Origin: Escherichia coli
GTDB taxonomy: Bacteria > Pseudomonadota > Gammaproteobacteria > Enterobacterales > Enterobacteriaceae
Reading direction: 5' to 3' (one strand)
Length of the DNA stretch: 64,000 nucleotides
Assembly (NCBI RefSeq): GCF_024502345.1
Contig: NZ_JALDNN010000003.1
Made by a program: the position numbers. How positions within the stretch are numbered: position 1 is the first letter of the stretch; the number at the start of each line of letters is the position of its first letter. This document shows positions 24,001-30,000 of the stretch, piece after piece.

Positions 24001-27000
24001 GCTAATAACCTGAACGAACGTTTTTTGAAAATAAATCAGGAAGGATGATTGAGATGATTTATATATGCAGGATTCAATTTTAATGGAGGGTATTTTCAGA
24101 ATTATCTGTTTACAAAAAACGAAACAAATCCTAATGAGGCATTTATTGCATCACAATAAAAGTGATTGCTTTTCACTCATTTGAGTAGCGATGCTTAAGT
24201 ATTTATCCGTTTTAAGGTATAACAGCAGCGTGATACGACTCAGGGAATGCCTGTCCGTCACCTTAATGATGCTTTACTTCCGGTTGCCGAAACAGTCCAT
24301 ATGGCTGACATGTATTACACGCACGGTCTAACGCAGTTCCGGGGGGTGGCACAGCGGCGTGATGCCGCTTTAATCTGGAAAACGCAGGCATCTACTGGTG
24401 CCTCAGGATCGCGGCACTCGCAAGCTGAAACACCAGAGCCTGTTCGTCTTCCGGCTGTATCGCTCGTCCCCGTCTACAAAACCCGTCTCATCCGCAGGTA
24501 TCGCTGGCGCACTCCCAGACGGTTAGAGGCTTTCGGGAACTGCCTGGGTCAAAGAACACCGGCGTTCAGGTAGCTGTTGAAATGGACATCTACACGTTTT
24601 TGTTCAAGTGATTCAGTTGTGGTGAGGGCATAACGGGTAATGCCCTCCCGTGAAGCCCTGAGAAAAGTTACTTTTCCAGGATTAATGCAGTCTGGCTTTT
24701 AATATAAATTCAGGGGATATTTTTTAAAAAAAATACCTGTCGTCAACTTATTAGAAAAGTAAGTCAAAATGCTAGAGTGTTCTCATTCAAAAAGAGGAGA
24801 ACTAACCATGCCAAAATATTTGTTACCTGCCGAGCTTGCGGAAATTGTTTGTGGATTACTGGTGCAACCAGCATTATTGAATGAATTAAAAACACCAGCC
24901 ACGCATAAAGCATTTATGCAGGACATCGGCGAGCTGGTGGCGAAACATTGCGGCGGTCAAATTGACGGCGTGATCATGCCTGAGGTACGCGATGAAGACA
25001 GCCAGGCCGATTACCTGACATCTCCAGATGAAACCCCTTATATTGTTGTCTCTCCTGGCCAGGACATGCACTCCCTCACAGATAACGTCTGGCGTCATCA
25101 TGCCCGGGATGGCTGGCTTGACCATATCAAAGGCAGTGTCGAAGAAAGCCCTGATGAACTGCCGACCCACAAAGAGTGCGCTGTACGCCGCTACACCCTC
25201 CAGCGTCTGCTCCTTCAGGAAGAAACCAGCCATGCTAATCTGCCAGTACAGGTGGTGCGGATGTGTGAGTACAGCACCGACGATGTTGAGCAGACCGATT
25301 CTTCAGCAGAGTTTAACGTCACAATGGCGCTCGGTGGTCATGCCATGCTGGCAGTAAAAGATACAGATTCCCGTCTGGTGATGGCCCTGACACTCTTGAT
25401 TGAAAATGGAGTTCCCTCTGTCCACGTTAATGCGGGTGACACTGATCCTTCAGTTCTGCACATCCGGGCAGCTCACGGTGGTCTGGTTCTTTCAACCGAC
25501 TCCCTTAATCATGATTTCAGTATTTCGCCCTCTGACCAGTATACCTACGGACGCCCTGGATTATTATTGAAAGCCGCCTACTGATTTATTAATTCAAAAT
25601 CCGTCATTATTATTTACCCCCATTTTTCGCCCCTAACTTATGGGGCGAGTATATTTTAAAAAACTTTCTTTCAGGTTATTAGCCAGCAAACTAGAACTGG
25701 TAGAATTAATTCATCAGAGAAAAGGGGACTATCATGGCTAAATTAATTTCGACGCGTGAACTGGCAACAATTATTACTGCATTACTGGTAAAACCAGAAT
25801 TACTGGGCGAGCTGGATTCCCCAGAAAAACATCGCGCCCTGATGGAAGATCTGGGGCGTGTTGTGGCAGAGCATTGTGGCGGTAATGTCACTGAAATCGC
25901 ACTACCGGAGACCGATGGTACGGCTGCTGAAGGCGCGTTGCAGAATGGCCAGCCCGTCCGCTATCTGGAAACCAAAGAAAGCTCTCCGTATCTCATCGTA
26001 CACCCTGACGCCTCACTGCCGTCGGTGACGCAAAACGTCTGGATGCACGCTGATCATGATGGCTGGGAAGAGCATTTCAACGGAGAGACCGATGCCCTGA
26101 CTCCAGAGATGAGCGAGCAGTTCCGCCAGCAGGTTTATGCACTGCTGACGCCGGAATCCCATACCACCTCTTCAGAAATGAGACTGACTTTGCAGGACTG
26201 GCAACTGGGTGAAGCCGAGATCCCAGAAGAAGACTGTCAGCCCTACCAGGTGAAGGTGTTAGCAGAAAATAAAAACGTTCAGTGCGAAGTGACGAATGAA
26301 ACCGGCACCACGTGTTTCGGCCTCATTTTGGAGATCGACCGTGGTGTACCGACGCTGCACATTGATACGGGCAGTGATTCACTGCTGCACATTCACGCGG
26401 CACATGACGGCCTGGTTCTGACACCGGATGCACCGAGCCACAGATTTGAAGATGCTCCTGTAGATCGCTTTTCTTATAACAGCCCGTCCCTGTTGGTGCC
26501 TGGGGTGTAACCAGGCAAACTGCCCAGCGGTATTTTGGCCCCGGGTAAAATTATTCAGAACAGGAGTCAGGCAGATGGGCGATGTTGCCACACTACCACC
26601 GAAAATTAACGATGGCGTACTTCGACGCTGGAATGCTCGCGATAAAGCGGATAAAGAGGCGCTGGCCGACTATGGCGTTAGCGTGAAGGAGGAGTGAATT
26701 GCGCGAATTACTTGGAATGGCAGGTGCAGAACATCAAGCCTCCGTAATGTATCAAACGTTCGGACACCTCGACGCGAAGCTAGGCGAAAAGCATAAAGGT
26801 CACTTCGTTTTTATCAACGGCCAGCACGGCGATCTGTGCGTTGTGCATAGTGAATTTTCATCCTTTGACGAAGGTCCAGGCTATTTCAGTGACCGTGCCG
26901 ACTTCATCTGGGAATTAGTTAAAAACGACGGCCCATGCTCTAAGGTCGGGATTTACCGATTTGACGGCGAATACGCGCTTCCTAAGCGCCGGAATGGGAG

Positions 27001-30000
27001 AAGATTTTCAGGAAGCGTAACGTGCCTGCAAGCATTCTAATTCCGTGCTGCATGAGCGCCGACAGGTCTTCCGTACAACGGGAGGCGGCACAGTTCGCGT
27101 GCAACCATCCCCACACAATAACTCGACTGAGTACATAATAATGACGAACGCTAACGCAAATGACGGGAAGACCAGCCCGGTATTACCCACTCTCGAACAG
27201 GTCTATGCTCTGCTCAAGGCCAACTATAAACCCGCACGATTTGCTGATCGGGATGGGGAAATCTGGGGGCATGAGTATTCATGGAACTTGGCAAGATCCA
27301 GTTTGCAAGACCTGGAGAAATACGGGAAATCATATGTATCCAAGCATTCCGACCGGATGGGCGATGGATTCAGTTTTGGTCCTGACCTGGTCATTATTCG
27401 CTGACATACGCACGGAAGTGAGTAAGATGGCTGGCTGCGCCGGAGAACTAGAGTAATGAAGGGTAAAAATATCGTGGCTCGTGTCGTGCGGGAAGCGGCC
27501 TATAAGTGGGAAACTCGCCACCAATTGCAGCAGGCGTACAATTCAGCGAGTGACGTGGGAAAAGTTCCCAGACATTCCGGTTCCGCATCTGATTTACGCC
27601 AGACGCTGTCATTTTTAATTCTTTGTAGGGCATGACGATGAAAAACACAGTAATACCGACGGTGACTGAAAACGAGATGGGAGAGGTGATCACCCGCCAC
27701 TCGGCTTACGGACTGGTATCAGTAAGCCGCACGTCCACGACGGGACAGCGCCTTTATGCCTCCGACCTCAGTCATAAAGAGGTAGTCACGATGACCTTCA
27801 GTGAATCAGAGCAGATTGAACGCGACGGTGTGATCCGTCATCGACTGGCGGAAGGCCGACGCCGCTCACCGCTCCTGCAAGTCAGTCTGTCTCCGGCGCA
27901 GTGGGCCACGATGATCACATCGTTCGGAATGAGTGACGGCGTGCCGTGTACCATTAACAGCCTGATTCGCGGCGATTATGAGCGGCAGCCGGAGATTGGC
28001 TATATTGAGTCGACACGCGAACGATACGAACGGCAGATCCGGGAAGCCGCTGAGCGTGAAATGGCGAAATTGCATGAAAAGCTGGAAGTGCTGCGTTTGC
28101 TGGCGGTAAAAGGCAAGGCTGGAAAGCGTGAGCTTGACGAAGCCTATCAGTCGCTGTTAAGCGTAATCAATAACTTGCCGGTCAATCTGGCCTTCACCAA
28201 CCAACTCATTCAGGAATCCATGGTGAATATCGTCTCACACGGCAAGGCCGAACTCGAAGCCACCGCCATGGGCGTAGCCGCTCGTCTGGGTATGAAAGAA
28301 ATGAGCAGCCTTGCCTCGCTGGAAGAGAAGAAGTAACCGGTGCGCCCGCCCGTAAATCATGAAATGCACTAACGTCCATACCTGCTGCACACATACGCGG
28401 CACACAGCTCAACGGCCAGCGCATACCGCGTTGACATAAACCGTAAACACTGAAGTGCGTCGTCCTGTCGGGGACATTCTACGTGGTTTTCTACGCCCCC
28501 CCCTTCTCTCTTCTGCGGCTCACAGAACTTCAGGAATTGCTGGTGGGCAGTCTCCAGGACGTTTTCCAGTAACCGGCTGTGGTCAGCGTCATATCCCTTC
28601 AGCAGGCGTTCCAGTTCTGCCATAGCGAGTGCAGGTGGTAACCAGATGACGCCAAGCAGCAAAAACTGGCTCTGCATTCGAATTTCATGGCGATCTGGCT
28701 TCAGACCCTCTGCCCGGGAAGCGCAATAATAAATCCTCTCCAGGGGAGCTACACGCGTGATAAGAGGTTTCTCAGCAATTTCTGACATGCGACTAAATCA
28801 GCCTGTTTCGTTTCTTTCTGATTATGTTAAGACACTATGAAAAAGCCCCGTAATACGGGGCCGGTTCGGAGGCAGTTACTGGATTTGCGGCAGCTCGATC
28901 ATGAAGCTTGATTCACCGACATTGCCGCTGGTGGCCGGGAAGATGGGGATCAGGACGCCATCACCCTGCCCGAAATCTATCGTGATGTCTTTCGAATCCC
29001 CGGGTACGACGGCCACCCCATTCATACTGACCGCAAAGGCCGCATCTTTGCGGACCGTCAGCGTGCCGGTTTGTGCTCCAGTGATCAGCGAACCATCTTT
29101 TTTCCGGATGCTATTGGTACGCAGATACGCCAGCGGCTGGTTATCTGATGTCTTCAGTCCCATGCCCACGGCCAGCGTCTTGATGGTATTAAATTCAATC
29201 AGGTTGTTCGGTACATAGCGGAACCGGCTGGTCTTTGTGGTGGCGTTTCCAGCTTCATCCATAGCTACGACAGTCAACAGGTAGGAACTCGCGTCGTCTG
29301 TCGCGGGGAAGATACGCGGGTAGTTCAGTCCATATTTGTCGGTTCCCTGGCTGTACCAGCCTACGCTGACTTTATCTGACGTGGGTCCGCCGCTCAGCGT
29401 AATGTTCTTCAGAGAAGCTTTAGTCATGTCATCGCTCAGGGTGATCACCAAGTTTTCCAGTCCTTTGACAAGCGATCCGTCAGCTGGTTTTCCTTCAAAG
29501 ATGATACCGACGACTGGCGGCGTCACGTCATGCAGGATGGTGCTCGATAGCTTCAGTTCAGCCGTGTTGTTGTAGGTGTCCGTCGCAGCACCCGTTGCAG
29601 TGTATTTCCCGGAAGGTAACTTACTGTAGTCAAACGTCACTTGCTTCAGCTGGTAGTTCAGGACTGCGACGCTTTTCGGCGACAGGGTTGTGACTTTATT
29701 ACTGGTATCCTTCAATGAGAGGTTGAAAATGTTGGTGGCCCACATATAGGTGGTCCAGTCGTTAGTTACGTCGCTGTCAGTCACCAGCATAACGACTGTT
29801 TTATCTAGTGGGTTGGAAACAATACTGTTGATGACAGGAGGATTCATATCCCAGTAGGTATAGAAATGCGACTGAAGTCCACCAAGATTAGCGTAAGTAC
29901 CGGTCCCTTTCATATGAATTTGGTACGGACTATAGCCTTTACCGCTCGTCTTACAGTAATCCATGCTGACTAGACAACTGCTCTCCCCCACTGCAACATT

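Follow-up and report, generated by a model that had tools for sequence, protein, structure and literature searches.

A six-gene cluster of the IncHI1 plasmid backbone as a mosaic array of uncharacterised accessory genes

The closest described counterparts of the locus presented here are the leading-region or establishment arrays of plasmids (ardA, psiB, ssb and orphan methyltransferases), reportedly surveyed by Samuel et al. in 2024, the early accessory genes of phages, the DNA mimics ArdA and Ocr, and the YeeW/DUF5983 genes of the CP4-type islands of Escherichia coli. The locus is a cluster of six plus-strand genes, g1 to g6, at positions 24808-28336 of a stretch of 64,000 nucleotides (nt) of E. 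coli plasmid DNA (contig NZ_JALDNN010000003.1), the whole of which is called the window below. Like the leading-region arrays, the cluster shows small same-strand genes, mostly of unknown function, on a conjugative plasmid, with acidic proteins, orphan methyltransferases in the relatives and mosaic turnover between related plasmids. Unlike them, it has no homology to known anti-defence families, it lies about 45 kilobases (kb) from the mobI/relaxase region of plasmid R27, where the origin of transfer (oriT) is expected, it shows no convincing Frpo-like promoter (fold z of -1.2 and -3.1, in an unconserved region), and its promoters resemble the ordinary double-stranded extended -10 type. Families of g4, g5 and g6 occur among phage early accessory genes (the lambdoid PL 'ea'/b-region and the T4-type small early genes), with a PAPS-reductase-family gene and DNA polymerase III theta homologs as common neighbours, but the cluster is on a conjugative plasmid, its promoter type is plasmid-specific and g1 and g2 have no homologs in the INPHARED collection. 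The latter two proteins share with ArdA and Ocr a strong negative net charge, the lack of conserved catalytic residues and the location on mobile elements; however, they show no sequence or profile similarity to them, they are larger, contain two domains and have a lower charge density. One member of the g1/g2 family contains the N-domain of these proteins followed by a DUF5983 C-terminal domain, as in the YeeW/DUF5983 genes, and this fusion shows the N-domain to be a shuffled module of mobile-element accessory proteins, although g1 and g2 themselves have no DUF5983.

The window is backbone of plasmids of incompatibility group HI1 (IncHI1), and its segment 24400-28500 shows 99.9% identity both to pHCM1, a plasmid from Salmonella Typhi CT18, and to more than 200 further IncHI1 plasmids. 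A version with 86% identity, referred to as the sister lineage, is carried by 61 plasmids of IncHI1A/IncHI3 type from Citrobacter, Enterobacter and other genera. In R27 the equivalent of the six genes occupies 60,422-63,950 on the opposite strand. The RefSeq records of pHCM1 and R27 contain identical gene calls for the cluster, each labelled 'hypothetical', and its open reading frames (ORFs) have been in the databases under that label since 2000. Calling of ORFs and both RefSeq records agree with the same-strand genes that the original prediction, made from the sequence alone, had placed here (lengths in amino acids, aa; pI, isoelectric point):

24808-25584, plus strand: g1, 258 aa, acidic (net charge -20, pI 4.8), two domains, paralog of g2
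25734-26510, plus strand: g2, 258 aa, acidic (net charge -28, pI 4.5), the paralog kept in all IncHI lineages examined
26575-26697, plus strand: g3, 40 aa, with a good ribosome-binding site, stopping 1 nt ahead of the g4 start; doubtful as a conserved gene
26699-27040, plus strand: g4, 113 aa, with a TTG start behind the strong ribosome-binding site AAGGAGGAG
27141-27404, plus strand: g5, 87 aa, member of phrog_11469, conserved across IncHI lineages
27456-27635, plus strand: 59-aa ORF, overlapping the g6 start by 4 nt and annotated in the R27 RefSeq record
27632-28336, plus strand: g6, 234 aa, member of phrog_6452, equal to R27 ORF R0057

The comparison of gene orders shows that this cluster is a mosaic accessory gene array of the IncHI1 backbone and not one multi-component system, because the orders differ across IncHI lineages and the g4, g5 and g6 families are common to phage accessory regions. 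The synteny sample, compared in one tblastn table, covers seven IncHI-type lineages. It consists of contigs that encode g1 relatives at increasing distance, of one IncHI2 plasmid and of contigs from genomes, and it shows three arrangements:

IncHI1 and the 86%-identical sister lineage: g1, g2, (g3), g4, g5, g6, with two extra genes before g6 in the sister
Contigs L003 and L006: g1, g2, methyltransferase, g5
Contigs L002 and L012 and IncHI2: a single g2-like gene, methyltransferase, g5, with extra small genes in between in L012

The six genes together are found only in IncHI1 and the sister lineage (281 PLSDB records), and the five other IncHI-type lineages, IncHI2 included, contain g2-like, methyltransferase and g5-like genes without g3, g4 and g6. 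The candidate module of the original prediction is thus largely contradicted, as a unit, by its distribution across plasmids, while the description of its genes as uncharacterised holds. IncHI2, a lineage of more than 1,000 plasmids, shows the order g2-like gene, orphan methyltransferase and g5-like gene; the intervening methyltransferase is an orphan class-I enzyme of N6/HemK-like type, and none of the relatives has a cognate nuclease gene nearby. A g2-like gene is found in about 1,300 PLSDB plasmids by DNA search and a g5-like gene in about 1,750 by tblastn, and g4 and g6 spread independently of the cluster. The succession g2, methyltransferase and g5 is accordingly read as an old core of all IncHI plasmids, remodelled in IncHI1 from a gene pool shared with phage accessory regions.

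Coding capacity was assessed by the number of substitutions at codon positions 1/2/3 between the window and an 86%-identical sister plasmid. The counts are 30/22/70 in g1, 23/13/59 in g2, 4/4/21 in g4 and 24/14/50 in g6, and the bias to the third position indicates that these four are real genes under purifying selection. In g5 the bias is weaker (6/6/11), and in g3 the conservation with the sister lineage (L007/L020) stops after codon 21. The 59-aa ORF matches only the beginning of a gene that the sister lineage keeps whole, with 84 aa, and by this comparison it is probably a truncated remnant of that gene. Reading frames are intact in 218 plasmids at 99% identity or more and in 61 at about 86%, and no protein of the cluster shows a transmembrane-like segment.

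The strong ribosome-binding site attributed to g1 is present (AAGAGGAG), and the cluster is, as had been proposed, divergent from a minus-strand operon, which encodes zinc-finger-like and HigB-like proteins. The term operon for the six genes is too strong. Gaps of 149 nt between g1 and g2, 100 nt between g4 and g5 and 227 nt between g5 and g6 are wide for a single transcription unit, the first of them contains a terminator-like hairpin and a second promoter box, and the expression of g6 is not coordinated with that of R27 ORFs R0058-R0061, described below.

Cross-lineage alignment of the upstream regions shows one conserved element just before the start codon, (G/C)TTATTAGCCAG-N11-TGnTAnnnT. 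This promoter box has the form of an extended -10 promoter with a conserved -35-region box, and the start codon is 27-40 nt downstream in the aligned regions and 21-40 nt when all copies are counted. The copies of the box and the other elements of the intergenic regions are as follows:

23978-24009, minus strand: box for the zinc-finger-like/HigB-like operon, GTTATTAGCCAG-N11-TGTCATTAT, one mismatch, ATG 29 nt downstream
24747-24778, plus strand: box upstream of g1, CTTATTAGAAAAG-N10-TGCTAGAGT, degenerate (three mismatches), extended -10 type, ATG 29 nt downstream
25675-25706, plus strand: box upstream of g2, GTTATTAGCCAG-N11-TGGTAGAAT, no mismatches and none in shuffles, ATG 27 nt downstream
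20694-20725 and 10925-10956, both minus strand: further boxes, no mismatches
2857 (minus strand) and 19980 (plus strand): weaker box copies in the window
63082, 64750, 67257, 84156 and 94688 of R27: box sites of that plasmid
24624-24647: palindrome, GAGGGCATAAC / GTAATGCCCTC, 11-nt arms with one mismatch and a 2-nt loop
25626-25649, plus strand: terminator-like hairpin between g1 and g2, GC-rich and followed by a T-rich tail, from a consensus scan only

Boxes with at most one mismatch number four in the window and five in all of R27, against none in shuffled sequence, and when three weaker copies just before start codons are added, all eight R27 sites lie within 63-96 kb; besides the boxes of g1, g2 and the divergent operon, five further sites are at 64-96 kb. 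The box precedes at least five transcription units and is conserved ahead of g1/g2-like genes in divergent plasmids; the GGCTAATAAC core of the HigB-like-operon copy is conserved in L007 and L003, and better copies than that of g1 stand at the g1-equivalent position in IncHI2, L002, L003, L006 and L012. This distribution suggests that the box may mark a regulon with its own regulator. Since g2 has a perfect box and g1 a degenerate one, the duplication that gave g1 appears to have carried the promoter along. The sequence of the hairpin is partly conserved in L007.

The palindromic box proposed ahead of the cluster does exist, but it ends 160 base pairs (bp) upstream of the ATG and not 130, and it is not a conserved regulatory element. 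When the 859-bp intergenic region is shuffled with dinucleotides preserved, 6% of the shuffles contain a palindrome as good as this one, and relative L007, at 86% identity, does not conserve the left arm. On these two grounds the palindrome is probably no functional operator, and that role is rejected. The same intergenic region shows a GC-rich patch at 24250-24600 that holds a 108-aa ORF with indels and no codon-position bias (31/23/26). In L003 a 116-aa gene occupies the equivalent place, and the patch may be a decayed gene remnant. Single-stranded folds of 24230-24680 give z of -1.24 on the plus strand and -3.11 on the minus strand, in sequence that is poorly conserved and absent from other lineages; a structured RNA or a single-strand promoter in the patch is not supported.

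g1 and g2 are true paralogs, as had been proposed from their N-terminal block and similar length of about 258 aa, with 32% identity over the full length (E-value 7e-45) and a common N-terminal block that contains the HCGG motif. A full profile search with g1 gives a family of 343 representative clusters, for which Pfam has no model (an earlier word-indexed search gave 12 clusters only). The N-domain (about residues 1-145) is found alone or fused to unrelated C-termini, the YeeW-type DUF5983 domain being one of these partners, and the C-domain (about 150-260) is found alone or at the end of longer proteins. Among 35 diverse full-length members only M1, L17, G49, G50, W95 and P203 are invariant, so the family shows no conserved catalytic set. 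HCGG was considered as a catalytic motif and rejected, H47 being replaced by Y, F or R and only G49 and G50 being invariant. Because invariant catalytic residues are lacking, g1 and g2 probably act by binding, and on the alignment they are probably binding or scaffold proteins and not enzymes. No homolog of them is found among the phages of INPHARED, and a search for related loci with a narrow alignment returned IncHI-type contigs only. Around the relatives, orphan methyltransferases, toxin-antitoxin pairs, ART-PolyVal genes and DNA polymerase III theta genes are frequent.

The other three families connect the cluster with phages. g6 matches phrog_6452 over residues 5-227 (E-value 3.1e-56) and g5 matches phrog_11469 (E-value 2.2e-15), neither family having an assigned function. 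The g6 family is found in 104 phage genomes and about 75 non-IncHI plasmid records, and five of the six non-IncHI plasmids sampled are enterobacterial plasmids of about 108-110 kb. Relatives of g4 are found in chromosomal lambdoid prophages, in the early accessory region between the recombination genes and xis-int, where the prophage neighbours of the g4 homolog are RecT/YqaJ, PAPS reductase, DUF551, a DNA polymerase III theta homolog and xis-int; PAPS-reductase-family and DNA polymerase III theta gene types are also present in this IncHI region. In T4-like phages of RB16 type, g5 relatives directly follow a Dcm-type methyltransferase gene and overlap its end. The phages with this pair of genes are RB16, Lw1, Miller and CfP1 (2626-3785 in the RB16 sequence, L019), and in the IncHI2-type arrangement the g5-family gene comes after the N6/HemK-like methyltransferase gene (9926-11044 in the IncHI2 sequence, L010). 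The Dcm-type methyltransferases of the phages and the N6/HemK-like ones of the IncHI2-type plasmids are non-homologous orphans, and this recurrence hints that the g5-family protein and a methyltransferase may be functionally paired. A universal link between the two was dropped, as it fails outside IncHI-type plasmids and RB16-type phages.

Pfam was searched with g1, g4, g5 and g6, and g2 and g3 were searched with NCBIfam, PADLOC and PHROGs only. Pfam shows no match for the four proteins, NCBIfam (all ORFs) none for g1 to g6, PADLOC-DB none at an E-value of 0.01 or below for nine proteins, and Rfam none on 22-32 kb. Profiles of ArdA, ArdB/KlcA, ArdC and Ocr are likewise without a Pfam or NCBIfam match for g1, g4, g5 and g6, and nuclease, ATPase, NTPase or other effector domains were not detected by NCBIfam, or by Pfam for the same four proteins. 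The sequence and profile searches of the PDB gave chance-level or coiled-coil matches only. The AlphaFold model of g1 is poor, with a mean predicted local distance difference test (pLDDT) of 53.8 from a 12-sequence alignment; Foldseek with this model returned homologous 'uncharacterized' proteins and weak scramblase or Tubby-like noise, which is not trusted. The g6 model is moderate (pLDDT 72.5) and shows an N-terminal beta domain and a long coiled-coil hairpin, with uncharacterised or generic structural neighbours only. The statement that no domain can be recognised in these genes is therefore borne out, since Pfam, NCBIfam, PADLOC, PDB and fold searches name none of them. The remote-homology check by fold searches led to uncharacterised proteins or generic coiled coils only, and the homology to housekeeping or known plasmid functions that would have argued against an uncharacterised locus was not encountered for any cluster gene in the family, PDB and fold searches. 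In the literature no paper was found on the cluster ORFs, and nothing relevant on the box sequence or on anti-defence in IncHI plasmids.

Published data on R27 bear on the cluster through deletion and expression. Deletion Del4 (60,355-67,055, ORFs R0057-R0065; Tassinari et al., PMC4853401) removes the whole cluster and the HigB operon. Since a marked loss of stability was seen only in Del16 and only Del18 was unobtainable in E. coli MG1655 (PMC4853401), Del4 has no marked stability loss, and the cluster is not needed for stability under laboratory conditions. R0057 is judged to be g6 from the gene order after R0055/R0056 and a 'myosin heavy chain' similarity note. R0058-R0062 are assigned by inference to g5, g4, g2 and g1, with an ambiguity of one position. 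R0061 and R0062 may be g2 and g1, respectively, in which case g1 is silent (22/28 units); alternatively R0061 may be g1, then the most strongly derepressed gene, with R0062 as an intergenic ORF. The microarray supplement of Gibert et al. (PMC7366339) gives the following values (25 C / 37 C, then htdA mutant versus wild type at 25 C):

R0057 (g6): 1573 / 1996, x1.02
R0058: 176 / 395, x3.77
R0059: 430 / 807, x4.04
R0060: 356 / 667, x4.21
R0061: 626 / 951, x6.79
R0062-R0065: not expressed on the microarray

By the values of R0058-R0061, at least four consecutive cluster ORFs are transcribed and respond to HtdA, and g6 is expressed constitutively and independently of the upstream genes. Some units with a good box are listed there as not expressed, so the box alone does not predict activity.

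The genes of the cluster are tentatively read as establishment or anti-defence-type accessory genes, similar in kind to phage early genes that are not essential. This reading draws on relatives that accompany orphan methyltransferases, toxin-antitoxin genes and polyvalent-protein-type domains, on three families that live in non-essential early regions of phages, and on the acidic and apparently non-catalytic character of g1 and g2. The ancestral core would have comprised three genes: one for an acidic, g2-like protein of two domains, transcribed from its own promoter, one for an orphan methyltransferase of class I, and one for a small protein like g5. In IncHI1, g2 would have been duplicated with its promoter to give g1, g3 and g4 would have taken the place of the methyltransferase, and a phage-type g6, separately expressed, would have been added. 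Transcription would start from sigma-70 extended -10 promoters that share the -35-region box GTTATTAGCCAG, predicted also ahead of several other accessory units at 64-96 kb of R27; the starts are predicted some 7 nt past the -10 elements, near 24785 and 25713 of the window, and expression of the cluster would be under the HtdA circuit of the plasmid. g1 and g2 may be non-enzymatic acidic binders that neutralise a host factor of defence or DNA targeting, acting in other IncHI plasmids alongside protective methylation by the neighbouring methyltransferase. A bolder version, which we regard as doubtful, would make the triad of g2-like, methyltransferase and g5-like genes an unrecognised counter-defence or epigenetic protection module, remodelled in IncHI1 by the duplication to g1/g2 and the replacement of the methyltransferase by g4, would turn the g1/g2 family with its 343 clusters into a novel class of binders that inhibit defence, and would make the GTTATTAGCCAG box the mark of an IncHI 'establishment regulon' under a dedicated plasmid factor.

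Several observations weigh against an establishment or counter-defence role. None of the genes has a match among the known families of anti-defence or anti-restriction proteins, and the AlphaFold model of g1 is poor (pLDDT 53.8). The distance of about 45 kb in R27 separates the cluster (60-64 kb) from the mobI/relaxase genes of Tra1 (104-108 kb), where oriT is expected. Acidity is common among small plasmid proteins and therefore weighs little as evidence. The pairing of g5 with a methyltransferase is absent in IncHI1, in a Klebsiella IncF plasmid and in a Morganella MOBH plasmid, and the link comes down to essentially two independent lineages. Expression on the microarray is slightly higher at 37 C than at 25 C, a temperature response contrary to that of the tra genes (PMC7366339). 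The silent units with good boxes are R0063/R0064, whichever numbering is used, and also the 110-aa ORF, should it be R0066.

Among the other explanations, an accessory role in conjugation together with Ig-like (Big) proteins, in which the products of the cluster would assist RSP2-type surface proteins from within the cytoplasm, as helpers or chaperones, or would serve mating under specific conditions, is unlikely. The immediate convergent neighbour of the cluster is rsp2 (R0055), whose product, an Ig-like conjugation protein of 794 aa, R27 requires in order to conjugate efficiently (PMC8730810), and in every IncHI lineage examined an RSP2-like Big-protein gene adjoins the g1/g2-like gene; however, its orientation and position vary among lineages, and the relatives of g4, g5 and g6 are in phages without a conjugation apparatus. 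R0058-R0061 are derepressed in the htdA mutant like the tra genes, but this response is unspecific, because most R27 genes are derepressed in that mutant (PMC7366339), and the temperature dependence is the opposite of that of the tra genes. A cassette of anti-phage or anti-plasmid defence, or of exclusion, that protects the host is very unlikely. Large plasmids often carry defence islands, the neighbourhood contains toxin-antitoxin genes, HNH nucleases and methyltransferases, and the predicted architecture of g6, a beta domain with a coiled coil and no assigned function, would suit such a role; against this, PADLOC has no match for any protein, the searches described above found no nuclease, ATPase or NTPase effector domain, the methyltransferases of the relatives are orphans without a cognate nuclease nearby, and the g5 and g6 families are common in lytic phages. 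There is a similarly slim chance that the genes are neutral leftover cargo, the decaying remnants of the ancestral g2-methyltransferase-g5 module. The loss of the methyltransferase in IncHI1, the remnant-like g3 and 59-aa ORF, the degenerate g1 box and the lack of a laboratory stability phenotype on deletion agree with decay, but the strong third-position bias of g1, g2, g4 and g6, the frames intact in the 218 and 61 plasmids mentioned above, and the measurable transcripts do not. A role in maintenance or stability (addiction, partition helper or copy-number control) tied to the RepB-family (RepHI1B-like) replicon is highly improbable and, for standard laboratory conditions, largely refuted, as Del4 removes the cluster and the HigB operon without marked stability loss (PMC4853401), although both that replicon and a HigB-like toxin gene lie close to the cluster.

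Plasmids of the IncHI1 and IncHI2 groups are among the main vehicles of multidrug resistance in Salmonella Typhi and further enterobacteria, and about two thirds of the R27 ORFs resemble no known ORF (PMC4853401). If the g2-like or g5-like gene aids establishment after transfer to a new host, the spread of these plasmids could be blocked by targeting it, and the families would be new for the catalogue of anti-defence genes; if the genes are dispensable cargo, the locus would be ordinary mosaic accessory DNA. The promoter box is a handle for finding the regulator of a block of uncharacterised backbone genes. New here are the structure of the g1/g2 family, the g2-methyltransferase-g5 core with its IncHI1 remodelling, the phage connections of g4, g5 and g6, and the common promoter box.

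The cluster is flanked by the zinc-finger-like/HigB-like operon on one side and by rsp2 on the other, and a gene encoding a RepB-family initiator, which we take to be RepHI1B or RepHI1B-like, is a few kb past rsp2. The HigB-like gene (23121-23417, minus strand) is intact here, and an IS1 copy (about 22339-23120 of the window, with the InsB ORF at 22574-23077) splits it from a 394-aa ORF (21154-22338, minus strand). In pHCM1 and R27 the 393/394-aa gene comes 8 nt after the HigB-like toxin gene, and it may be the partner or antitoxin of this toxin. Between g6 and rsp2 there is a convergent small ORF (28369-28788, minus strand), which has 139 aa here and a 102-aa form in the R27 RefSeq record; that form is probably R0056, which is up 15-fold in the htdA mutant. 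This ORF shows 71% protein identity with the sister lineage and a weak codon-position bias (20/21/35). On the other side, a PAPS-reductase-family protein of about 800 aa (15922-18351, minus strand) is a conserved neighbour in the IncHI backbone, with homologs in L003 and L016. A shorter PAPS_reduct gene adjoins the g4 homolog in the lambdoid prophage early region, and this gene type is therefore common to both elements. Far from the cluster, at about 60800-62000, the window has a 320-bp repeat in at least four copies arranged head to tail, which show up as 135-aa ORFs at 60801, 61121 and 61441 and as motif matches at 60841, 61161, 61481 and 61801. In R27 the repeat lies at about 26.2-26.6 kb, between parA and trhC, and the array may consist of partition or incompatibility repeats.

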